This document shows, in pieces, positions 1 to 26,181 of a stretch of DNA of 32,484 bases. Source of the DNA: a virus (taxonomy: Duplodnaviria; Heunggongvirae; Uroviricota; Caudoviricetes); IMG/VR virus record IMGVR_UViG_2548876858_000013, one strand, 5' to 3'. A program made the position numbers and the translations under genes. Within the stretch, counting starts at the first letter, position 1, and each line of letters opens with the position of its first letter. The notes beneath the pieces were generated by a model, which saw only the letters and a list, made by a program, of their open reading frames with translations, made no database searches and was not told where the DNA came from.

Positions 1-996
1 TTATGGACGCATTATGGACATTCCTGACACCGGGTTAAGAGTCACTGCATCTTGTAAGAAATCCGGTGCAAAGTGTGCGTAGGTCATAGTTTGCTGAATG
101 TTAGAATGACCCAGGATGCGCTGCAATGTGATTATGTTACCTCCATTCATTATAAAATGTGTGGCAAATGTATGCCTCAAAACATGCACTGCCTGTCCGT
201 CAGGTAAATCGGGTTTTACTTCCCTGAGAGCGTTGCGCACTTTGTAGTAACTGGCATTAAAAAGCCTGCCTGAATTTTTGGTCTTGATCCGTTTAATCAG
301 GTCCTGCGAAACGGGAATTGTCCTGCGCTTTCCGTTTTTAGTTTTCATAAACGTAACCATCTGGTTAATGATGTGTTCAGCTTTTAAATTAGACACTTCA
401 CTCCAGCGTCCACCAGTAGAAAGGCAGACCAGAGTCGCATTTAATTCATCACCATCGAGCATGGATAACAGCCGTGTAATCTCTTCACTGGACAAAAAAG
501 CCATTTCTGTAACAGCTTCACGTAATCGCTTAACCTCACGGAACGGGTTGTGAGAATGGTATTCACCGGCGTCAATTAACTTGGTGAACATCCCGCTCAT
601 TATTGCCAGATGCCGATTTACGCTGGCTGGTTTTAGACCATCGTTCATCATTACAACGCGATAATCAGTTATCGTTTTCTTTGTTAGCTGGTCAGCTCTG
701 GACACTCCCATTTCTGCAAATTTGGCGATTATTGTCGTCAAACGCCCCCGTTCAATATCTCCACGCTCATGTGATTTTCCGTGATATATCCACCATCTTC
801 CTAACAATTCTGTAAGAGTTCGGCGGTCGGCTGGCTTCTCCAGCCACTCTTTGTTGTGGTAGTTAACCAGTACATGACGTTCGAATGCTTGAGCTTCACC
901 TTTAGTTTTAAATTTCCGCCTGATACGTTTTCCATCTGCACCCTGCGGTCTGACGTCCACTTCATAACGACCATCATCGAGCTTTTTAATAGACAT
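1..996 (-). CDS. int: Phage integrase (tyrosine recombinase)
   Basis: 331-aa ORF at the prophage left end, leftward like P2 int; C-terminal region has tyrosine-recombinase-like boxes (HVLRHTFATHF ... LGHSNIQQTMTYAHF). Confidence 0.9.
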   Translation of the reverse strand: MSIKKLDDGRYEVDVRPQGADGKRIRRKFKTKGEAQAFERHVLVNYHNKEWLEKPADRRTLTELLGRWWIYHGKSHERGDIERGRLTTIIAKFAEMGVSRADQLTKKTITDYRVVMMNDGLKPASVNRHLAIMSGMFTKLIDAGEYHSHNPFREVKRLREAVTEMAFLSSEEITRLLSMLDGDELNATLVCLSTGGRWSEVSNLKAEHIINQMVTFMKTKNGKRRTIPVSQDLIKRIKTKNSGRLFNASYYKVRNALREVKPDLPDGQAVHVLRHTFATHFIMNGGNIITLQRILGHSNIQQTMTYAHFAPDFLQDAVTLNPVSGMSIMRP

Positions 997-6125: not shown

Positions 6126-6385
6126 GTAAAAATGCAGCGTGATTTTATATGCCTTTGAATGGATTATGCGAAGCGCCTCTAAGGCAGATGAGGAGCAATA
6201 GCATGCTGAAGTAGAAGGCTAAATTGTATTGAATCGCTAGCATGTAATTTAAGGCAGCTATTTGATTCGAGTCATAAAAGAGCATCTATTTCGGCTAATA
6301 AAACCATTGCGAGTGACCTTTTGTCGAAGCATAATTCATCTCGAGCGAAGTCTTGCTAGTCTTTCATCGGAATGATGACAGGCGC

Positions 6386-6415
6386 AAAAAAACCACCCTG
6401 GCAGGTGGTTTTTTT
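6386..6415. terminator. Bidirectional intrinsic terminator-like hairpin
   Basis: AAAAAAACCACC / loop CTGGCA / GGTGGTTTTTTT: an A-tract and T-tract flanking a GC stem; 13 nt downstream of the minus-strand small ORF stop and about 260 nt downstream of gene A. Confidence 0.6.
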
Positions 6416-6427
6416 GTTTGAAGCATA

Positions 6428-6541
6428 CTAAAGAATAATACTTACATGGATATTACTGACGTTTACTGACAAACCACTTGGACTACCATATGGATAGCCA
6501 AAGAGGGCCAGAACGAGAATGCAGTAATAGCACTTCTTCAT
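6428..6541 (-). CDS. Small hydrophobic protein (37 aa), candidate small membrane peptide
   Basis: Minus-strand ORF MKKCYYCILVLALFGYPYGSPSGLSVNVSNIHVSIIL, translated by hand. Near-consensus RBS GGAGGAGAT immediately upstream of the ATG and a hairpin terminator just downstream. Below the 60-aa cut-off of the ORF track. Confidence 0.4.
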   Translation of the reverse strand: MKKCYYCILVLALFGYPYGSPSGLSVNVSNIHVSIIL

Positions 6542-7112
6542 ATCTCCTCCTGTAAGCAGAGGGCAATTTCCGCCGATATATGCGCTTCTGAGGCGGAGTT
6601 ACTATTTAGCGAAGTCTTGCCCTGAAATAATGCTCTGTTTAAACGCAAAGTGATCTGGCATATCACCGAACAGAGAGCCTGAACAACACAACATATAGTA
6701 TGTCGTTGTTTCTGGTTGCATTTTATGTTGTGTAATACTGGTTTTGCATCAAGGATGTTTGAGCTTTTTTTGATATAGCTCAAAGTAAAAAGCAGGGACT
6801 ACGGATGATAAGGTATTGAAAGCAATGTAAATTTTTTAAAGTTATTGGTGGCTAAAAAATGCACGGTTTCAATATGGCGGACTTAAATAAGCAATTAAAA
6901 AAGTCATAAATATCACTAAAATCATGGTGTTACGTTTTTTTGTGGGAGCTGCGGTGACGCTTAAGTTGATTTGTCATTAAATAAGCCGTGCATGCAACAA
7001 GTGAATGTTTTTGCATGCGTCGGGGATGCCCGTTCCAGCTGCTCGCGGTCAGAGCTGGTGCGGATCCATAGTATCTATGCAACTGCATTAAAACCGCCAC
7101 ATGAAGCGGGCG

Positions 7113-7131
7113 GGCGAGGCGGGGAAAGCAC
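7113..7131. other. cos site (P2-type 19-nt cohesive end GGCGAGGCGGGGAAAGCAC)
   Basis: Exact 19-mer that I recall as the P2 cohesive end and start of the P2 genome, followed here by TGCGCGCT as I recall for P2; sits in a GC-rich patch within otherwise AT-rich DNA between A and Q. Confidence 0.65.
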
Positions 7132-7355
7132 TGCGCGCTCCATTAACGACCATTACATAATACTATTAGCCTATGAATCGAGTCATGAGATGTTATCTTT
7201 ACGATTCAGGCGAGTGCTTTCGTTACGATGAGTTAGTTTAAGCACACTATCTGCACAAAAAATAATCTGTTGAAGCGATTCATCATTCCTAACGCTCTAG
7301 AGTCTTAAATAAAAATATGTAAAATGCGTAAAATTTTCTGAATTATGGATCAGCT

Positions 7356-8438
7356 ATGCTTGGAACTTCATCACAAAGAGCTATTTCAGTACAACATGTT
7401 GATTTAAATGTAAAGTGTTGGGTCGTTAGACCTGGGATTAAGTATAGATATTTTGCAGACTTCCTTGAACGCAATATGGTTGCTACTGCTCACTTGGATA
7501 GGTTAAGTCCAGATCAAATTGACTTTAATGATGAAATTAACCATGAAAATATTAATCAAAAGGTTGATGGGTTAGATACTATTGGTTCAAGAAATATTCA
7601 TACCCAAATTGAAAATTTCCTCATAGATATGCAGGTCGGTGATGTTGTTTTCACTTTGTCAGGTGATATGGTTGTTCCTGGAGTTATTGCATCTTCCGCG
7701 TATTTTGAGCGTGAATGTTTAGGTAATAATGAAGGGTTTCATGTAAGACGTAGAGTCACATGGGGAGAGCCAGTTCGCAGACGAGAGATTCCATTAGCTC
7801 TTCAGAAATCGTTTACTGCATACCAGACCGTATTCTCTTTGGGCGGGAAGTCAGAAGAAGTACTGCATTGGTTAATGTCATTCTTTATAACGGATAATAT
7901 TTTCTGTACTAGCTTAAGAGTCGAGCAAGCAGAAGCCATTCGGCATCATACTCTTAAGCAGCTGGCTGAGCTGGTCGATAGAGTGCAGGTACTTGCGCTA
8001 TTAATTGGCGAAGAGTTTGATGGCGAGTATACAAACGAAGTTGTTCAGTTTGAGATGGAAAGACTTTCTAATAATGGAGAGTTATCCTTGACTGCTCAAC
8101 AAATGTTGATGTCTCCGGGGGATGTTTGGCTACAATTTAAAACAAATAATAGAAAGGCCGGAATTGCGTTTATGTTAATTATGGGGGCCATTTTTAATCA
8201 TGATGTAGCCTTCGCTTCAACGGTTGATAATCGTATAAGTGAGGAACTTCGATCTCATATTGAAGGGAAAAAAGAGGTTGCAATGGATGGATTAAACTTT
8301 GATAGAGTTTCTCAAGTTCTAGAGTTGCGTTTAAAAAGACAAAATAGAGGCTTTGTTTCTGCTCGTCCAACGAACCGTGAGATCGGACAGGGGATCAATT
8401 TCCCTGAAGATGGTGATGCGAGGCATGCGAGTGACTAA
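7356..8438 (+). CDS. Hypothetical cargo protein, 360 aa, soluble; first gene of a two-gene operon
   Basis: Long ORF in AT-rich DNA; weak RBS (GGAT), so the true start could be downstream. No nucleotidyltransferase GS..DxD motif and no clear HEPN or PD-(D/E)xK motif seen by eye. Confidence 0.7.
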   Translation: MLGTSSQRAISVQHVDLNVKCWVVRPGIKYRYFADFLERNMVATAHLDRLSPDQIDFNDEINHENINQKVDGLDTIGSRNIHTQIENFLIDMQVGDVVFTLSGDMVVPGVIASSAYFERECLGNNEGFHVRRRVTWGEPVRRREIPLALQKSFTAYQTVFSLGGKSEEVLHWLMSFFITDNIFCTSLRVEQAEAIRHHTLKQLAELVDRVQVLALLIGEEFDGEYTNEVVQFEMERLSNNGELSLTAQQMLMSPGDVWLQFKTNNRKAGIAFMLIMGAIFNHDVAFASTVDNRISEELRSHIEGKKEVAMDGLNFDRVSQVLELRLKRQNRGFVSARPTNREIGQGINFPEDGDARHASD

Positions 8439-8440
8439 CT

Positions 8441-9130
8441 ATGAACTTTGAATTTGTAAAAGAACACTGGCTGATAATAGGCATGCTATTCATAGCATGT
8501 CTATTATTAATTTTAAAATTCAAAGATATTTACAGAACACACGATCAGTTTAATAACGTCGTGATGTCATTGTGCGCTGTTTTGACACTTGTGTGGGGAG
8601 GATATACTTTTGATGTTTTGCACCAAAGGGATAAGGCAGAAGCTGATCTTATAGAGTTAAGAAATAGAATTAGAAATACAGAATCGACATTTTTTAATGT
8701 TGACGTTAATGTTGTTAAAATCGATGATGTGTTTTATATAAAGCCTATTGTGACTATTAGGAATAACAGTAATGAGCGAATTTATGTGAAGCTTAATAAC
8801 AAGTCCCTTGCTGTTAGTCGTGTTTTATCGGCCGGTGCAAAGCAAGTCGCTACGGAAGTTTTTTATCCAAATTATTATGAGGAGTTGGCTGTTCTTAATG
8901 AAGAAAGTAGCTCGCAAGGAAAAGCTAAAAATATACCTTTATATGACATATCCGTTCCTATCTCTGCTGAAAGACGCTTGAACTATCTTGTTTCGACAAA
9001 AGAAAAAGGAATGTATTATGTAACATTTAGTGCTGAGGCAATGAACGAAGATGGCTCGCCTGTTTCTAAATACATAAATGGGAAAAAATCTATATGGTTT
9101 TCTTCTTCATATATTGAAGTTAAAGATTGA
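8441..9130 (+). CDS. Hypothetical cargo membrane protein, 229 aa, two N-terminal TM helices plus a beta-rich-looking soluble domain
   Basis: ATG 2 nt after the upstream stop (TAACTATG). Hydrophobic segments WLIIGMLFIACLLLIL and VVMSLCAVLTLVWGGYTF; the remainder is rich in alternating hydrophobic/polar stretches. AT-rich. Confidence 0.7.
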   Translation: MNFEFVKEHWLIIGMLFIACLLLILKFKDIYRTHDQFNNVVMSLCAVLTLVWGGYTFDVLHQRDKAEADLIELRNRIRNTESTFFNVDVNVVKIDDVFYIKPIVTIRNNSNERIYVKLNNKSLAVSRVLSAGAKQVATEVFYPNYYEELAVLNEESSSQGKAKNIPLYDISVPISAERRLNYLVSTKEKGMYYVTFSAEAMNEDGSPVSKYINGKKSIWFSSSYIEVKD

Positions 9131-9225
9131 ATTTCTATTAAACCATATAGTAATTGAAGGTGTTGGGGGTTAATCTTGCCTGGATTGCATAGAATCACGC
9201 CGCCTGGAGACGGCGCTAAGGGTAC

Positions 9226-17351: not shown

Positions 17352-17781
17352 TGCCGTCACGGTGCTGAAAACTAACCCCGATATGCTGCGGATATTCGTG
17401 GATAACGGGAGTATTGCCTCCACACTGGCGGCGTCGTTGTCATTCGAAAAGCGTTACACGCTCAATGTCATTGTGACCGACTTTACCGGTGATTTTGACC
17501 TGCTCATCGTGCCGGTGCTGGCGTGGCTGCGGGAAAATCAGCCCGACATCATGACCACCGACGCAGGCCAGAAAAAGGGCTTCACGTTTTATGCAGACAT
17601 CAACAATGACAGCAGCTTTGATATCAGCATCAGCCTGATGCTGACCGAGCGCACGCTGGTCAGTGAGGTGGACGGCGCGCTGCATGTGAAGAATATCCCG
17701 GAACCTCCGCCGCCGGAGCCGGTCACCCGCCCGATGGAGCTGTATATCAATGGCGAACTGGTGAGCAAGTGGGATGAATGA
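17314..17781 (+). CDS. R: Tail completion protein (P2 gpR-like)
   Basis: 155 aa, recalled P2 gpR length, in synteny. Confidence 0.85.
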   Translation: MLKPDSLRRALTDAVTVLKTNPDMLRIFVDNGSIASTLAASLSFEKRYTLNVIVTDFTGDFDLLIVPVLAWLRENQPDIMTTDAGQKKGFTFYADINNDSSFDISISLMLTERTLVSEVDGALHVKNIPEPPPPEPVTRPMELYINGELVSKWDE

Positions 17782-18226
17782 GTTTAAGCGTTTTGAAGAC
17801 CGGCTGACCGGACTGATTGAATCGCTGTCACCGTCAGGGCGTCGGCGACTGAGTGCCGAACTGGCGAAACGCCTGCGGCAGAGTCAGCAGCGTCGGGTGA
17901 TGGCACAGAAAGCTCCGGACGGCACACCCTACGCGCCACGCCAGCAGCAGAGCGCCAGAAAAAAGACCGGTCGTGTTAAGCGAAAAATGTTTGCGAAACT
18001 TATCACCAGTCGTTTTTTGCATATCCGCGCCAGCCCGGAACAGGCATCAATGGAGTTTTACGGCGGGAAGTCACCGAAAATCGCCAGTGTGCATCAGTTC
18101 GGTCTGTCGGAAGAAAACCGGAAAGACGGTAAGAAAATTGATTATCCGGCGCGTCCTCTGCTCGGCTTTACCGGTGAGGATGTGCAGATGATTGAAGAGA
18201 TTATCCTGGCTCACCTTGAGCGTTAG
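17774..18226 (+). CDS. S: Tail completion protein (P2 gpS-like)
   Basis: 150 aa, recalled P2 gpS length, in synteny. Confidence 0.85.
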   Translation: MNEFKRFEDRLTGLIESLSPSGRRRLSAELAKRLRQSQQRRVMAQKAPDGTPYAPRQQQSARKKTGRVKRKMFAKLITSRFLHIRASPEQASMEFYGGKSPKIASVHQFGLSEENRKDGKKIDYPARPLLGFTGEDVQMIEEIILAHLER

Positions 18227-18260
18227 TTTTATCCAGGCAGAGGCTGATGCGCAATTAAGC

Positions 18261-18287
18261 ATTGAGCGGCCGTGCTGGTCGCTCAAT
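18261..18287. terminator. Stem-loop between gpS and the convergent cargo gene (possible terminator)
   Basis: 8-bp inverted repeat ATTGAGCG ... CGCTCAAT with an 11-nt loop, between two convergent stops; no strong U-tract. Confidence 0.3.
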
Positions 18288-18297
18288 ATTTAGAGGT

Positions 18298-19083
18298 TTA
18301 TGAGTGGTTTTTATTTGATGCTTTGTATTCTAAAACCTTCTTATTGGCGTAAAGGAATTTTGTATATGACAGGAATATAAGCAGACCTGAAATGAAATAG
18401 GTTAGGGATATTATTAATAATGTTTTTCTGTGGCTGTTATTATCTTTAATCTCCTGACTTAACCATTCGGAGTCCTCCTTGTTTAGCTGTAAGAGCTTAT
18501 TGCAGGCGATCTCGGGAAGTGTGTCTTTTATAAATACGTTTTGCAGACTCTTGCAATCGGCAAGGCTATAAGTTTTATTAAATTCAACCGTTTTATTTTT
18601 GAAGGATAAAAGAACTTTGTCACTATAAACATAGTACATCATATTTTTATATGGTATACCTATGGCATCCCTTACTATAGCGGATTGTTCATTGTGTATA
18701 TAACATGCGAAGAGAATATAAATAATACTGGCCAGAATTACAATTATTGTTTTAATTATGTGTGGTGGTTTTGTTATGTCACCCCAGATGCGAGTAAGGA
18801 AAAAATACGATGTTTTTAGTTTTCCATCAATCAGTCCCTGCTGTATCATTCTCACATTTTCAATGCCTGATACATTGATTCCGTTAATTATTTTAAATAG
18901 TTGAATGTCGCGCCACTCGCGGTCAAGTCTTTTTAATTTTTTGTCTGAATATCCAAAATTGAAATAATGTGCAATAAGCCTCATAAGGTTACTTTTACCA
19001 AAGCTAAAAAATGCTAATACTGCAAAGCTACAAAGGAAAAAAACGATTAGCCCCCACACATTAGTCACATTATAGCTGACCAT
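18298..19083 (-). CDS. Hypothetical cargo membrane protein, 261 aa, three predicted TM helices
   Basis: Strong RBS (AAGGAG six nt upstream of the ATG at 19081-19083); very AT-rich; hydrophobic segments near the N-terminus (VWGLIVFFLCSFAVLAFFSF), middle (IIKTIIVILASIIYILFACYI) and C-terminus (LLIISLTYFISGLLIFLSY). Sits at the S-V variable locus. Confidence 0.75.
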   Translation of the reverse strand: MVSYNVTNVWGLIVFFLCSFAVLAFFSFGKSNLMRLIAHYFNFGYSDKKLKRLDREWRDIQLFKIINGINVSGIENVRMIQQGLIDGKLKTSYFFLTRIWGDITKPPHIIKTIIVILASIIYILFACYIHNEQSAIVRDAIGIPYKNMMYYVYSDKVLLSFKNKTVEFNKTYSLADCKSLQNVFIKDTLPEIACNKLLQLNKEDSEWLSQEIKDNNSHRKTLLIISLTYFISGLLIFLSYTKFLYANKKVLEYKASNKNHS

Positions 19084-19166
19084 TACGCTCTCCTTGAATG
19101 TTGTCTGGTAGTTCTACAAATGAATCCAGATAGCATAACTTTTATATATTGTGCAATCTCACATGC
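19084..19166. promoter_or_regulatory. Probable late promoter region upstream of V, shared with the divergent cargo gene
   Basis: Position-based inference; 83-bp AT-rich divergent intergenic region. Confidence 0.3.
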
Positions 19167-19802
19167 ATGAACACTCTCGCAAATATTCAGGAACTCGCGC
19201 GCGCACTGCGCAACATGATTCGCACCGGCATTATCGTCGAAACCGACCTTAACGCCGGTCGCTGCCGCGTGCAGACCGGCGGCATGTGCACCGACTGGCT
19301 TCAGTGGCTGACCCATCGCGCCGGGCGTTCGCGCACATGGTGGGCACCTTCCGTGGGGGAACAGGTGCTGATTCTGGCCGTGGGTGGTGAACTCGACACG
19401 GCGTTCGTTCTGCCGGGGATTTATTCCGGCGATAACCCCGCGCCGTCTGCGTCGGCGGATGCCCTGCATATCCGTTTCCCTGACGGGGCGGTGATTGAGT
19501 ATGAACCTGAAACCAGCGCGCTCACGGTAAGCGGAGTTAAAACGGCCAGCGTGACGGCTTCTGATTCTGTTACTGCCACGGTGCCGGTGGTCATGGTGAA
19601 AGCATCAACCCGCATCACCCTGGACACACCGGAGGTGGTCTGCACCAACAGGCTGATTACCGGCACGCTGGAAGTGCAGAAGGGCGGGACGATGCGCGGC
19701 AACATTGAACACACCGGCGGTGAGCTCTCATCAAACGGTAAGGTACTGCATACCCATAAACACCCCGGCGACAGCGGCGGCACAACCGGGGGACCTCTAT
19801 GA
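19167..19802 (+). CDS. V: Baseplate assembly/spike protein (P2 gpV-like)
   Basis: ATG at 19167 gives 211 aa (recalled P2 gpV length); the ORF track start at 19149 is a TTG. Confidence 0.85.
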   Translation: MNTLANIQELARALRNMIRTGIIVETDLNAGRCRVQTGGMCTDWLQWLTHRAGRSRTWWAPSVGEQVLILAVGGELDTAFVLPGIYSGDNPAPSASADALHIRFPDGAVIEYEPETSALTVSGVKTASVTASDSVTATVPVVMVKASTRITLDTPEVVCTNRLITGTLEVQKGGTMRGNIEHTGGELSSNGKVLHTHKHPGDSGGTTGGPL

Positions 19803-21592: not shown

Positions 21593-23722
21593 ATGAGCAC
21601 AAAATTCAGAACCGTTATCACCACTGCCGGTGCAGCAAAGCTGGCAGCGGCAACCGCGCCGGGAGGGCGGAAGGTCAACATTACCACGATGGCCGTCGGG
21701 GATGGCGGTGGTAAATTGCCTGTCCCGGATGCCGGACAGACCGGGCTTATCCATGAAGTCTGGCGACATACGCTGAACAAAATCAGCCAGGACAAACGAA
21801 ACAGTAATTATATTATCGCAGAGCTGGTTATTCCGCCGGAGGTGGGTGGTTTCTGGATGCGTGAGCTTGGCCTGTACGATGATGCGGGAACGTTAATTGC
21901 CGTGGCGAACATGGCCGAAAGTTATAAACCTGCCCTTGCCGAAGGCTCAGGGCGTTCGCAGACCTGCCGCATGGTCATCATCGTCAGCAGTGTGGCCTCA
22001 GTGGTGCTGACCATTGACACCACAACGGTGATGGCGACGCAGGATTACGTTGATGACAAAATTGCAGAGCATGAACAGTCACGACGTCACCCGGACGCCT
22101 CGCTGACCGCAAAAGGTTTTACTCAGTTAAGCAATGCGACCAACAGCACGTCTGAAACACTGGCCGCAACGCCGAAAGCGGTAAAGGCCGCCTATGACCT
22201 GGCTAACGGGAAATATACTGCGCAGGATGCCACCACAGCGCGAAAAGGTCTTGTCCAGCTCAGTAGTGCCACCAACAGCACGTCTGAAACGCTCGCCGCA
22301 ACACCAAAAGCGGTAAAGGCCGCGTATGACCTTGCTAACGGGAAATACACTGCACAGGACGCCACCACAGCGCGAAAAGGTCTTGTCCAGCTCAGTAGCG
22401 TCACCAACAGCGATTCTGAAATGCTTGCGGCAACGCCAAAGGCGGTTAAGACAGCGTATGACCTTGCTAATGGGAAATACACTGCACAGGATGCCACCAC
22501 GGCGCGGAAAGGTCTTGTTCAGCTCAGTAGCGCCACCAACAGCGATTCTGAAACGCTGGCTGCAACGCCAAAGGCGGTTAAGACAGCGTATGACCTTGCT
22601 AACGGGAAATACACTGCACAGGACGCCACCACAGCGAGAAAAGGCCTTGTCCAGCTCAGTAGCGCCACCAACAGCGATTCTGATACGCTGGCCGCAACAC
22701 CAAAAGCGGTGAGGTCTGCCTATGACAATGCTGAGAAACGTCTTCAGAAAGATCAGAACGGCGCGGATATTCCTGATAAAAGATTATTCCTGCGCAATAT
22801 TGGAGCAACAAATTCAACAACCATGTCTTTTAGTGGTGGTACAGGATGGTTCAGGCTGGCAACTGTAACCATGCCACAGGCCAGTTCCGTGGTTTACATA
22901 AGTCTGATTGGTGGTGCCGGGTATAATGTTAACTCCCCTATGCAGGCTGGTATATCTGAACTTGTTCTTCGTGCGGGAAATGGAAATCCAAAAGGTCTTA
23001 CTGGTGCGTTATGGCGACGGACCTCGGTTGGATTTACTAATTTTGCATGGGTGAATACATCCGGTGATACCTATGATGTTTATGTTGAAATAGGTAATTA
23101 CGCCACAGGTGTTAATATTCAGTGGGATTATACCAGTAACGCCAGCGTAACGATTCATACATCACCAACTTATACAGCGAATAAACCAACAGGCCTGACA
23201 GATGGAACTGTATATGTAATTTACAGTTCGCACATTAAACCGACTGCTGCTGATGTTGGGGCGTTATCATTATCTGGAGGTCAATTGAATGGTGCACTGG
23301 GCATCGGTACATCCAGTGCTCTTGGCGGTAACTCGATTGTTTTGGGTGATAATGACACGGGCTTTAAACAAAATGGCGACGGTAATCTGGATGTTTATGC
23401 TAATAACGTCCATGTTATGCGCTTTGTCTCCGGTAGCATTCAAAGTAATAAAACCATAAATATTACGGGGCGTGTTAATCCCTCGGATTACGGTAACTTT
23501 GATTCCCGCTATGTCCGGGATATCCGGCTTGGTGGTGCTGCCACATACAAACCTGCGAACAATGGCATGACATGGACACATCAGGCACCATCCGGGTGTG
23601 TATATTCCGGCATTATTGTTCAGGATACCGGCTCAAACTCTGCCGATAACATTGGTGGCGTATATTACAGGCCGGTGCAGAAATACATTAACGGGACATG
23701 GTATAACGTGGTGCAGGTATAA
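21593..23722 (+). CDS. H: Tail fiber protein (P2 gpH-like) with internal tandem repeats
   Basis: 709 aa after the baseplate genes; conserved N-terminal region, a central block of 44-aa tandem repeats, and a more AT-rich C-terminal region. Confidence 0.9.
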   Translation: MSTKFRTVITTAGAAKLAAATAPGGRKVNITTMAVGDGGGKLPVPDAGQTGLIHEVWRHTLNKISQDKRNSNYIIAELVIPPEVGGFWMRELGLYDDAGTLIAVANMAESYKPALAEGSGRSQTCRMVIIVSSVASVVLTIDTTTVMATQDYVDDKIAEHEQSRRHPDASLTAKGFTQLSNATNSTSETLAATPKAVKAAYDLANGKYTAQDATTARKGLVQLSSATNSTSETLAATPKAVKAAYDLANGKYTAQDATTARKGLVQLSSVTNSDSEMLAATPKAVKTAYDLANGKYTAQDATTARKGLVQLSSATNSDSETLAATPKAVKTAYDLANGKYTAQDATTARKGLVQLSSATNSDSDTLAATPKAVRSAYDNAEKRLQKDQNGADIPDKRLFLRNIGATNSTTMSFSGGTGWFRLATVTMPQASSVVYISLIGGAGYNVNSPMQAGISELVLRAGNGNPKGLTGALWRRTSVGFTNFAWVNTSGDTYDVYVEIGNYATGVNIQWDYTSNASVTIHTSPTYTANKPTGLTDGTVYVIYSSHIKPTAADVGALSLSGGQLNGALGIGTSSALGGNSIVLGDNDTGFKQNGDGNLDVYANNVHVMRFVSGSIQSNKTINITGRVNPSDYGNFDSRYVRDIRLGGAATYKPANNGMTWTHQAPSGCVYSGIIVQDTGSNSADNIGGVYYRPVQKYINGTWYNVVQV
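22113..22722 (+). repeat. In-frame tandem repeat inside the tail fiber gene, about 4.6 copies of a 132-bp (44-aa) unit
   Basis: Repeated peptide KGLVQLSSATNS(T/D)SETLAATPKAVKAAYDLANGKYTAQDATTAR; copies begin near 22113, 22245, 22377, 22509 and 22641 with a few substitutions. Confidence 0.85.
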
Positions 23723-24253: not shown

Positions 24254-24310
24254 GTTCTATGAGCTCTGGTGTGAGCTGACATATCTATGGCAAAGAGTAA
24301 AGCCTAATCT

Positions 24311-24342
24311 GACAGTCCGCTCTGTGCCATGAGCGGACTGTC
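24311..24342. terminator. Perfect 12-bp inverted repeat stem-loop downstream of G (possible terminator)
   Basis: GACAGTCCGCTC / 8-nt loop / GAGCGGACTGTC; no clear U-tract, so terminator efficiency is uncertain. Confidence 0.4.
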
Positions 24343-24537
24343 AATAAACAGATTTACGTGTAAATCTTGAAGCTATACATATTTACTTTCAATGATAAAT
24401 AAAAGAACCACCCCAAAATCACTGAAAGTATATTTTAACTAACCACCTGCAACTACTAACATTAATTTCACTCAACCTCAAAGAGTCGTAATTAAAATGA
24501 TATGTATAGCAATTTGCCTCGATACGAATCATATGAA

Positions 24538-25236
24538 TTATATTTTTCCATGCTTTTCACCGTCAAATCGAATCATGCTAGGATCAAGAAAATAAATCAA
24601 ATCAATTAACGCATGTTGTATTCTGATTAGCCTTTCTTTATAAGGCTCGATATTTTTTGTCATATTTATCACTTCATTGTTTAAATCTAAAAAAAATGGT
24701 TCATTGACAAAGCAATTTTCCTTTGTGAAACCGCCGTAACCTATGCAATCAAATCCAGCATCTGTTGATATCAACATCTTTTCCGCAATAGCTCTCTGCT
24801 CTCCTATGAAAAACATAAAATACTGACCAAAGGCGTCTGTTTGGATTAATGAGTTAATATTGTTCTGTAATCTAATAAACTCCCTCATTTTTTTATTTTT
24901 TTCTAGACTAAGGTATTGAATGTCTATGCGGGCAGCTTCTGTCCATGCAAAGAACTGGGAAAAAAGAAAAACCGTATTTTTGATAACATAATCTTGTTGG
25001 CGCTTACTCCCATTATGATAAAACTCTTCAATAAACCCTAATTCTAATATGTTATAAATGCGGCTTTGTAAGTCTGAAGCTGAGCGAATTAACGGTTCAA
25101 TATAGTACTGATGTTTTCTCCTTACATCCAGTGTTTCATTGAGCTTGTTTATTCTATTCTGATTATAGGTAGATATAGCAATAGAGATTATAGATATTGC
25201 ACCACCAATAAGGCTTGAAATTAATGCCACACTCAT
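24538..25236 (-). CDS. Hypothetical cargo protein, 232 aa, N-terminal TM helix plus soluble domain
   Basis: RBS AAGGA seven nt upstream of the ATG at 25234-25236; very AT-rich; N-terminal hydrophobic segment VALISSLIGGAISIISIAISTY; at the G-FI variable locus. Confidence 0.7.
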   Translation of the reverse strand: MSVALISSLIGGAISIISIAISTYNQNRINKLNETLDVRRKHQYYIEPLIRSASDLQSRIYNILELGFIEEFYHNGSKRQQDYVIKNTVFLFSQFFAWTEAARIDIQYLSLEKNKKMREFIRLQNNINSLIQTDAFGQYFMFFIGEQRAIAEKMLISTDAGFDCIGYGGFTKENCFVNEPFFLDLNNEVINMTKNIEPYKERLIRIQHALIDLIYFLDPSMIRFDGEKHGKI

Positions 25237-26058
25237 CTAAAAGTCCTTTGATTTTCTTGGTTAACAAAATGACATGGTTTTATTTAATGTCGCAGCAACT
25301 TAATAATACACCATGATATGATTATTATGGTGTGATTTTTCGCATCTGTAATCCATTACAAACAGATGCAAGGTATAACTTGTCTATTTTTAGTCAGAAA
25401 ATTCGTAAACATCCAAAGTAGCCTCATCAAACTCTTAAAATTCTATACATTTGAGTGTAAAGATTTTAAATTCAGCTGCATGGTATCGACTCATGTTTAT
25501 TATATCTTTTATTTGTAATTAAAGGTTGCATTATTTTCGATAGTAAATCATCGCAAGATTGAAATATGATTTCACTTGATGCAATGTTTCATGTGGCCCA
25601 GCGATTTGAGTTACACCCAGCTGTACGGGTAATATAAATCAAATTGATGAACTTTTGATACACTCCTCTCTCCTCATTACTTTATGTTTTTGCTCTCAAA
25701 AATATCTTGCTCTCTGAAAATTATTCTTTAAGTTCAAAGTCGAGGACTGCATGAGTGTTAGATACAAAGCTAATATGTTGAAATGTTTTTCATCTCCCCA
25801 TAACGGCATTATTATCTAAAATATTTACACAAATATAGGATTACCCCTTTAACGTAAACTAGGTATCAAGTTAACACCATTATATATATCATAAACATGA
25901 TATTTTGTATATTTTTATCATTTAGCCTTGATTGTACAGGGCGTACTCTCAACGAAGTAGGGAAAGTCTGTTTTTCGCTCAAAACTGGCTGTCAGATTTG
26001 ATAGCATTTGGGCTATGTAAATTGTCAGTTGGAGAATGAGGGAGTAAAAATCAGGACA

Positions 26059-26085
26059 GGCGGGCGAATTGCCCGCCTTTTCTTT
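26059..26085 (+). terminator. Intrinsic terminator-like hairpin upstream of FI
   Basis: GGCGGGC / loop GAATT / GCCCGCC followed directly by TTTTCTTT on the plus strand. Confidence 0.5.
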
Positions 26086-26181
26086 ATCTGTTGTTTCATC
26101 CACTGACCAGCCAGGTCAAATAGCGTCTCATGTACTACCCAACGGAAAATAGTTGCACCCATTAACCACGGAGTTAAACGG
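26086..26181 (+). promoter_or_regulatory. Probable late promoter region upstream of FI, inferred by position
   Basis: Region between the terminator and the FI start. One-mismatch candidate to the recalled TGT-N12-ACA late-promoter site (TGT at 26092-26094, CCA twelve nt later); not conclusive. Confidence 0.3.

Follow-up and report, generated by a model that had tools for sequence, protein, structure and literature searches.

The stretch of DNA analyzed here (hereafter the window) is the whole of the 32,484-nucleotide virus record IMGVR_UViG_2548876858_000013 from IMG/VR, a complete P2-like prophage with an integrase gene (1..996), replication gene A, and genes for portal, terminase, capsid, lysis, and tail. 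Among its tail genes lies orf30, a gene of 261 codons on the minus strand (18298..19083; ATG start, stop codon at 18298-18300), antisense to both of its neighbors, gpS (17774..18226) and gpV (19167..19802). A trough in the composition profile of the window coincides with the 940-bp, AT-rich interval 18227..19166: the gene has a GC content of 0.33 (0.35 at third codon positions) against 0.55-0.62 (about 0.58) in the flanking tail genes. A Shine-Dalgarno sequence AAGGAG, read from the sequence at 19090..19095 on the minus strand, lies 6 nt 5' of the ATG, and similar sequences stand 5' of the starts of divergent homologs. Kyte-Doolittle hydropathy gives three peaks above 2.0, at residues ~9-29, 109-131, and 220-241, and three transmembrane (TM) helices are predicted. 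A first-pass annotation of this DNA had described a single AT-rich gene opposite in strand to the tail genes, with a strong ribosome-binding site and three hydrophobic segments, inserted between gpS and gpV. Each of these observations holds, and 18227-19166 proves to span precisely the gap between the stop codon of gpS and the start codon of gpV. The drop in composition, taken together with a conserved family (11 of 11 alleles intact, and 70 of 79 further copies exactly 261 codons long), identifies orf30 as a real gene rather than a chance open reading frame (ORF).

The gene is almost certainly the ortholog of orf30 of bacteriophage P2, and as such an already known gene. A tblastn search aligns the window protein with P2 Orf30 (AAD03281.1; AF063097 9439..10224) across all 261 residues at 94.6% amino acid identity, the 14 substitutions falling within the mosaic allelic range of E. 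coli prophages. The 2-kb region around the gene is 97% identical to P2 in nucleotide sequence, with colinear flanks and with matching slot and orientation. PHROG 2407 (unknown function) is matched at E = 2.6e-146, all 261 residues aligning with the 261 positions of the profile, and WP_024234803.1 ("hypothetical protein") is the exact sequence of the window protein. The family that the first-pass annotation could not assign by eye is thus that of orf30 itself. The annotation of P2 calls the gene "nonessential," and UniProt names its product "Uncharacterized 30.4 kDa protein in S-V intergenic region." Nothing in Pfam or NCBIfam matches the window protein, and a sequence-profile search of solved structures yields noise only (E of 0.12 or worse). 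Published work that mentions orf30 lists it as unknown or treats it as a region gained by horizontal transfer (PMC3091744, PMC2771037, PMC6823313), and a literature search returned no paper with the protein accession, "30.4 kDa protein," or "S-V intergenic."

As one of the last P2 genes without an assigned function, orf30 is also a common one, found in about 9% of complete E. coli genomes. The 940-bp cassette is present in 464 of 5,426 such genomes (8.6%), from many hosts, chromosomal every time and annotated as hypothetical every time. P2-type gpV occurs at 1,810 places in 1,581 E. coli genomes; set against the 464 genomes with the cassette, this means that about a quarter of close P2-type junctions hold orf30. 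The 90%-identity cluster of the exact Orf30 sequence has as its representative a 197-residue "recombinase family protein," and most of its listed members are recombinases as well. This looks like a clustering or lookup artifact, one that may account for the Orf30 cluster not surfacing in the initial homology search.

The gpS-gpV cassette

Phages with an empty site, such as W-phi (L034 528-593; L numbers denote loci and P numbers family members), have an unrelated S-V spacer of 66 bp, to which neither end of the 940 bp aligns. Because that spacer shares nothing with either end of the cassette, the extent of the cassette is exactly stop codon to start codon. Comparison of occupied and empty junctions shows orf30 to be non-essential DNA, acquired horizontally as a cassette that takes the place of the entire gpS-gpV spacer in a P2-like prophage.

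The regulatory elements of the junction are part of what is replaced. A hairpin with an 11-bp stem (AUUGAGCGGCC...GGUCGCUCAAU) lies at 18260..18288, between the convergent gpS and orf30, and its RNA folds on both strands. In the annotation of P2 (9397..9433, which maps to 18260..18288) this hairpin is the putative rho-independent terminator that closes the O operon, and the orf30 transcript probably ends there as well; its folding z-scores, about -1.4 to -1.5, are not exceptional by energy alone. The putative binding site of the Ogr activator at the late promoter P_V, on the plus strand at 19098..19125, was mapped by position from P2 10239..10266 (offset +8859); it falls within the cassette, in the part of the prophage that is 97% identical to P2, and overlaps the 5' region of orf30. 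Since occupied and empty junctions share no sequence, the V operon, which is essential, must use different terminator and P_V sequences in phages with and without orf30. The empty 66-bp spacer bears a GC-rich hairpin of its own (GCCGCCGG…CCGGCGGC). An Rfam scan of the locus gives just one sub-threshold chance match.

Across 76 close phage relatives, the S-V slot holds orf30 in 21, is empty in about 53, and has an alternative occupant in 2 (R18C). The R18C occupant (L032 645-1385) is a soluble protein of 246 residues, encoded on the forward strand, with CxxC…H…CxxC motifs and a sub-threshold match to HNH_5; it was considered as a member of the Orf30 family and rejected as unrelated. The first-pass annotation had taken this junction for a second variable cargo locus of P2-like phages. 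The cargo-like nature stands (AT-rich, antisense, and "nonessential" in P2), while "variable" is an overstatement, given the occupancy among close relatives and the finding that distant elements mostly carry divergent members of the same family.

This distribution bears on whether orf30 might serve P2's own cycle, in lysis timing, in blocking re-injection, or in passage of the tail across the inner membrane, or whether the cassette might mainly be regulatory DNA that supplies the O-operon terminator and P_V. In favor of such a role, the association of the family with the S-V slot of P2-like phages is tight and ancient, and the cassette replaces the whole spacer and carries a hairpin terminator and a P_V activator site. 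Yet the gene is annotated as non-essential in P2, about 70% of close relatives are viable with an empty slot, and late transcription should oppose the expression of a gene that is antisense to the late operons. It is also intact in two decaying prophages, L020 (NZ_CP033401.1) and L023 (NZ_CP126931.1), one of which has a truncated gpV and the other a gpS interrupted by ISEc12, and the survival of orf30 where tail genes are inactivated suggests that the host, and not the virion, is what benefits. A part in the phage cycle, or a mainly regulatory one, is therefore improbable.

The Orf30 family and its probable link to DUF6216

An exhaustive phmmer search of 1.84 billion representative sequences yields 35 matches only, of which about 20 are full-length (250-270 residues) at 22-34% identity. 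These align with Orf30 end to end, sharing the three TM segments, the motif DxQLF[KR]xxNGINVxxxxDA...G on the cytoplasmic side, an FGxIG turn ahead of TM2, a pair of cysteines in loop 2, and NxxxxxxK near the C-terminus, and PHROG 2407 is matched over its full length also by the divergent relatives P0007, P0026, P0036, and P0084. Comparison of these homologs and their neighborhoods shows Orf30 to found a small family (PHROG 2407, with a distant link to DUF6216) that hardly occurs outside the S-V slot of P2-like elements. The relatives P0007 (34% identity), P0010 (33%), P0026 (27%), P0036 (25%), and P0023 (28%) are all encoded antisense, adjoining gpV, in P2-like elements. For the first four of these gpS lies on the other side, and P0023 belongs to a degraded remnant without a called gpS. 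GC content is about 0.34 for P0007, P0010, and P0026, the three for which it was computed; the neighboring tail proteins are 47-84% identical to those of the window, against 33-35% for the membrane protein. A survey of 83 further loci from genome and viral collections, run with a narrowed alignment and so biased toward the closer part of the family, yields 77 in which the homolog lies between gpV and gpS, 4 cut by the end of a contig, and 2 chromosomal copies in Enterobacter. That a single divergent family persists in the S-V slot, with relatives at 25-35% identity in the same antisense position, is a new finding.

Exceptions to this placement include a Pantoea member just downstream of the integrase gene of a 186/P2-like prophage, a homolog that adjoins a DsbA-like gene, and P0032 (L014 6001-6765, GCA_034107775.1; on many contigs), which stands alone between homologs of yegQ and yegS. 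The yegQ-yegS interval is where E. coli K-12 carries its cryptic P2 remnant (ogrK-yegZ-yegR), and P0032 may be all that is left of a prophage since lost. Elsewhere the slot holds additional genes. At L111 (3416-4237; also at L037, L112, L114, and L115) an extra protein of 273 residues, with two N-terminal hydrophobic helices and no Pfam match, is encoded between the homolog and gpS; at L010 (4965-5899) two genes, one for 180 residues and one for a 133-residue DUF7480 protein, lie between gpV and the homolog. At L030, a degraded P2-like prophage, P0023 and P0040 (26% identical) are encoded in tandem beside gpV (7001-7771 and 7900-8658).

Stacked divergent paralogs of this kind resemble orphan immunity gene arrays, and Orf30 could be a factor of lysogenic conversion or immunity unrelated to phage, either an envelope protein that raises host fitness (stress tolerance, colonization) or one that protects from membrane-targeting toxins, be they secreted effectors, R-type tailocins, or colicins of the pore-forming kind. 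Immunity to such colicins is conferred by small proteins of the inner membrane that have 3-4 TM helices, and the membrane-embedded architecture of Orf30, with its predicted periplasmic domain, would suit such a role. So would the retention of intact copies in decayed prophages and at chromosomal sites, and the presence of orf30 in so large a share of complete E. coli genomes (the 8.6% given above, many hosts). Toxin-immunity genes, however, usually travel with their toxins or in islands, and this family is almost confined to one slot in one phage lineage. No toxin gene is adjacent at the homolog loci inspected, and searches by sequence and by fold revealed no resemblance to known immunity proteins. 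Taken as a whole, the evidence makes an immunity or fitness role unlikely.

It is probable that Orf30 is a distant relative of Pfam family DUF6216 (PF19723), a link that is likewise new and that would connect it, through DUF6216, to H-NS silencing. Five of 27 Orf30 family members match DUF6216 at E<=0.01 (best 8.7e-7), and the member P0034 bears a precomputed PF19723 label. In E. coli BL21(DE3), the protein WP_000115390.1 (ECD_RS04470; "DUF6216 family protein" according to PGAP), which scores 44.5 bits against Pfam DUF6216, is encoded antisense between gpS and gpV homologs in the remnant of a 186/P2-like prophage. It shares with Orf30 the antisense slot, similar size (268 residues), three TM segments, and an AT-rich gene. 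Alignment of the two families with hhalign gives a probability of 69.5% (E = 4.2e-5) over 112 columns, which comprise the periplasmic domain, TM3, and the C-terminal motif, with both cysteines aligned. The models from AlphaFold2 (AF2) have a core order in common, namely a TM helix, four strands, a short helix with the first cysteine, a helix with the second, and a long TM helix, the DUF6216 model being confident for residues 80-230 only.

Several results weigh against the relationship. The hhalign probability is moderate and concerns the C-terminal half only, and a single-sequence profile comparison of Orf30 with DUF6216 gives 7%. Orf30 relatives rescanned individually reach 13-22 bits, below the DUF6216 gathering threshold of 27.3 bits; the window protein itself gives no match to Pfam DUF6216 even at E<=1, and direct BLASTP finds no significant match between the two. 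The N-terminal halves are unalignable, the cytoplasmic loop of DUF6216 is shorter by ~40 residues and its C-terminal tail longer by ~40, and DUF6216 proteins of the BL21 type fall outside PHROG 2407 and are absent from 50,697 phage records. Because the Pfam gathering threshold was applied and the scores lie below it, Orf30 is not counted as a member of DUF6216. The notion that the window is a prophage of the BL21 type was also considered and rejected, as its hotspots hold different cargo.

The DUF6216 link matters because the BL21 gene is reported to be bound by H-NS and because a DUF6216 protein has been flagged computationally as defensive. According to a 2026 preprint (10.64898/2026.09.05.749240), the BL21 gene accounts for one of three H-NS peaks in its prophage, and mutation of hns/stpA derepresses it. 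Among the DefensePredictor results (PMC13092281 Table S10), an E. coli DUF6216 protein appears as an unvalidated "predicted novel defense gene," its mean log-odds being 5.07; the orf30 accessions do not occur in the part of the DefensePredictor tables examined.

Predicted architecture and evolution of the protein

Orf30 is predicted to be a three-pass inner-membrane protein with its N-terminus outside and its C-terminus inside, an ~80-residue cytoplasmic domain of three helices, and an ~88-residue periplasmic beta/alpha domain (all coordinates that follow are on the minus strand). TM1, placed by hydropathy at residues 9-29 (18997..19059), follows an 8-residue N-terminal tail, predicted periplasmic, that contains no Lys or Arg; it is the most variable segment among alleles. 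The predicted cytoplasmic domain (residues 30-108; 18760..18996) has three short helices and 14 Lys and Arg in 79 residues, and contains the best-conserved motif of the family, DxQLF[KR]xxNGINVxxxxDA...G87. TM2 (residues 109-131; 18691..18759), placed by hydropathy and AF2, leads to the predicted periplasmic domain (residues 132-219; 18427..18690), modeled by AF2 as a four-stranded sheet with two helices. This domain holds the conserved cysteine pair, Cys177 (18553-18555) and Cys194 (18502-18504), and is probably locked by a disulfide between them. TM3 (220-241) and a basic cytoplasmic C-terminal tail (242-261), with conserved N247 and K254, complete the protein (18301..18426). The AF2 model has a mean predicted local distance difference test (pLDDT) of 85.3 and a predicted template modeling score (pTM) of 0.76, with cytoplasmic helices at 47-66, 73-85, and 90-93 in model numbering; numbering in the model and in the family alignment is the true residue number minus 1. 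The assignment of topology follows from three features seen in all 27 family members: an N-terminal tail without Lys or Arg, a basic C-terminal tail, and exactly two cysteines in loop 2. This predicted topology, with its conserved periplasmic cysteine pair, is another new element. No conservation of the catalytic type (a His, Asp, or Ser constellation) is seen in the 27-member alignment.

An architecture of this kind might also belong to a membrane effector of abortive infection, a single protein acting somewhat as RexB does: inert until its cytoplasmic domain senses a cue of infection, it would then depolarize or permeabilize the membrane, so that the lysogen is dead by the time the phage would mature. 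In favor of this, orf30 is AT-rich prophage cargo consisting of one gene, its product has three TM helices, the most conserved motif lies in the cytoplasmic domain as a possible sensor or interaction surface, H-NS silencing of the BL21 slot-mate fits a potentially toxic product, and a DUF6216 relative is flagged by DefensePredictor. A pore triggered from the cytoplasm, on the other hand, would have no obvious use for a conserved periplasmic disulfide domain, and monomers with three TM helices would need to oligomerize. Homolog loci show no conserved adjacent partner or sensor gene, and no abortive-infection model in PADLOC resembles Orf30. We hold this explanation, too, to be unlikely.

The pattern of substitution shows, at the level of alleles, a gene that is maintained by selection and evolves faster than its neighbors. 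All 11 alleles compared have intact ORFs of 261 codons with no frameshift. Among them the ratio of mean nonsynonymous to mean synonymous substitution rates (dN/dS) reaches 0.47 in orf30, whereas gpS and gpV have values of 0.09 and 0.14. By region, with the caveat that the regions are short, the pairs non-independent, and recombination present, dN/dS is 1.26 for the N-terminal tail with TM1, 1.11 for TM3, and 0.45 for TM2, while the cytoplasmic domain, the periplasmic domain, and the C-terminal tail have values of 0.39, 0.30, and 0.24, respectively. The differences take the form of alternative cassettes shuffled among the alleles, three for TM1 and two for TM2. L016 and L020 have flanks near-identical to those of the window joined to a divergent orf30, which points to allele replacement by recombination. 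This mosaic, accelerated evolution of orf30 is a further new observation.

Such a record also bears on whether orf30 has any function at all. As a functionless passenger, the remnant of a moron that hitch-hikes with an essential promoter region, it would need no phenotype and no promoter, and none has been reported or found; the overall dN/dS of 0.47 is fairly high. But homologs down to 25% identity retain length, three TM segments, motifs, and the cysteine pair, the soluble domains have dN/dS values of 0.24-0.39, and the intact reading frames (no frameshift in 11 alleles, exactly 261 codons in 70 of 79 copies) would be surprising in a passenger, which makes this a very improbable account.

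Possible function and other cargo of the prophage

What is seen of orf30 is consistent with a protein made by the prophage for a task at the cell envelope, which may be directed against other phages. Our best guess, to which we give a probability of about 0.3, is a non-enzymatic, SieA-like superinfection-exclusion factor that would block the delivery of phage genomes. Expression of Orf30 from the prophage would be low, kept down by H-NS, and the protein would sit in the inner membrane and act there without enzymatic activity, for the benefit of the lysogen. It would hinder membrane penetration or genome delivery by incoming phages, as P22 SieA does, its targets being most plausibly relatives with contractile tails, and its variable TM cassettes may set specificity. 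The points counted for exclusion are the status of the gene as cargo, the three-TM topology (with which the DsbA-like neighbor of one homolog is counted), restriction to one lineage, the pattern of selection along with allele swapping, intact copies in decaying prophages, and the tandem paralogs of L030, the H-NS-bound slot-mate in BL21, and the DefensePredictor entry for DUF6216. The guess in the first-pass annotation of superinfection exclusion or abortive infection is plausible on these circumstantial grounds. Homology to a known P2 backbone protein, which that annotation had named as evidence against such a role, is strictly not what was found, Orf30 being a non-essential accessory protein, yet the gene is a known P2 gene.

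P22 SieA (PHROG 7745) serves as a working analogy only. An inner-membrane protein, it is like Orf30 encoded by a single prophage gene, antisense beside tail or ejection genes, with three predicted TM segments, and it is restricted to one phage lineage, in which sequence types less than 30-35% identical occupy one slot (PMC10883804). It differs in size, at 162-164 residues, and is without the two ~80-residue soluble domains of Orf30; its block of DNA injection was shown by experiment, while that of Orf30 is a proposal. Homology of Orf30 to SieA types A-C was considered and rejected, with an hhalign probability of 0.2% and assignment to different PHROGs, and the SieA motif FxRYPxEAxxFNK is absent from Orf30.

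That absence of homology to SieA is one of a series of points that weigh against an exclusion role. To our knowledge, decades of P2 genetics have produced exclusion phenotypes for old, tin, and fun(Z) and mapped none to orf30. P2 lysogens can be superinfected by P2, giving double lysogens. For these two reasons, exclusion of P2 itself would be at most partial. A literature search on orf30 and DUF6216 found no functional study and no experimental phenotype, and the DefensePredictor entry is computational and concerns a distant relative, not orf30 itself. The window protein matches no defense-protein family in PADLOC-DB v2.0.0 at E<=1, and a PADLOC scan of 27 relatives gives one marginal match only, to HamA (E = 0.0067). 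Of the two kinds of search that the first-pass annotation had proposed, homology searches led to P2 Orf30 and PHROG 2407, and searches of PDB and BFVD with the Orf30 model gave no significant structural neighbor. A promoter search upstream of orf30 in the window, and upstream of its homologs, turned up no sigma-70 site that is either consensus-like or conserved. The elevated dN/dS of TM helices can simply reflect weak constraint on hydrophobic segments; because TM helices tolerate substitutions, values near 1 in them are no proof of positive selection.

A broader proposal, which we consider doubtful, is that Orf30 and DUF6216 together might form an unrecognized family of inner-membrane superinfection-exclusion proteins specific to the P2 lineage, with the gpS-gpV slot as their permanent home. 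Variants of the periplasmic domain and the shuffling of TM cassettes would determine which contractile-tail phages or R-type tailocins are stopped, stacked paralogs would widen the spectrum, and H-NS would quiet the system in the laboratory. On this proposal, silencing by H-NS would explain why an exclusion family was missed through decades of P2 genetics.

The old, tin, and fun(Z) genes of P2 are AT-rich, non-essential, expressed from the prophage, and active against other phages (PMC9122126; 10.1101/2024.10.15.618418). Cargo of the same phage, and AT-rich and non-essential like orf30, they lie at other loci, and the S-V slot is far less diverse (one family or nothing), with no exclusion phenotype known for it. 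Recent surveys of P2 hotspots treat the old/tin and Z/fun positions, one adding a third site near the repressor, and not S-V; the terms gpS, gpV, and orf30 are absent from them. If the family is indeed a defense or exclusion factor, the S-V slot would become a third defense locus of P2-like phages, holding a conserved, lineage-specific family, unlike the two classical hotspots with their swapped systems, and it would furnish an example of H-NS silencing that hides prophage functions. As it stands, the analysis identifies a known gene and adds comparative evidence and a testable hypothesis; it reveals no new kind of system.

The two classical hotspots of the window are also occupied. The old/tin position (6200-9200) is AT-rich and carries two ORFs on the plus strand: 7356..8438 encodes 360 residues, of which the N-terminal half matches the PADLOC candidate PDC-S02 (E = 2.4e-12), and 8441..9130 encodes 229 residues with no Pfam or PADLOC match. 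The pair may be an uncharacterized two-gene defense candidate. At the Z/fun position (24300-26180), a minus-strand ORF (24538..25236) encodes 232 residues with no Pfam match and a weak PADLOC match to RTasTM, a DRT-associated TM protein (E = 1.1e-6); the ~900 bp that follow (25240-26180) are AT-rich and hold no ORF of more than 61 codons. In the translation of the gpH tail fiber gene (21593..23722), about five tandem repeats of ~46 residues are seen (…TARKGLVQLSSATNS[TD]SETLAATPKAVK[AT]AYDLANGKYTAQDAT…).

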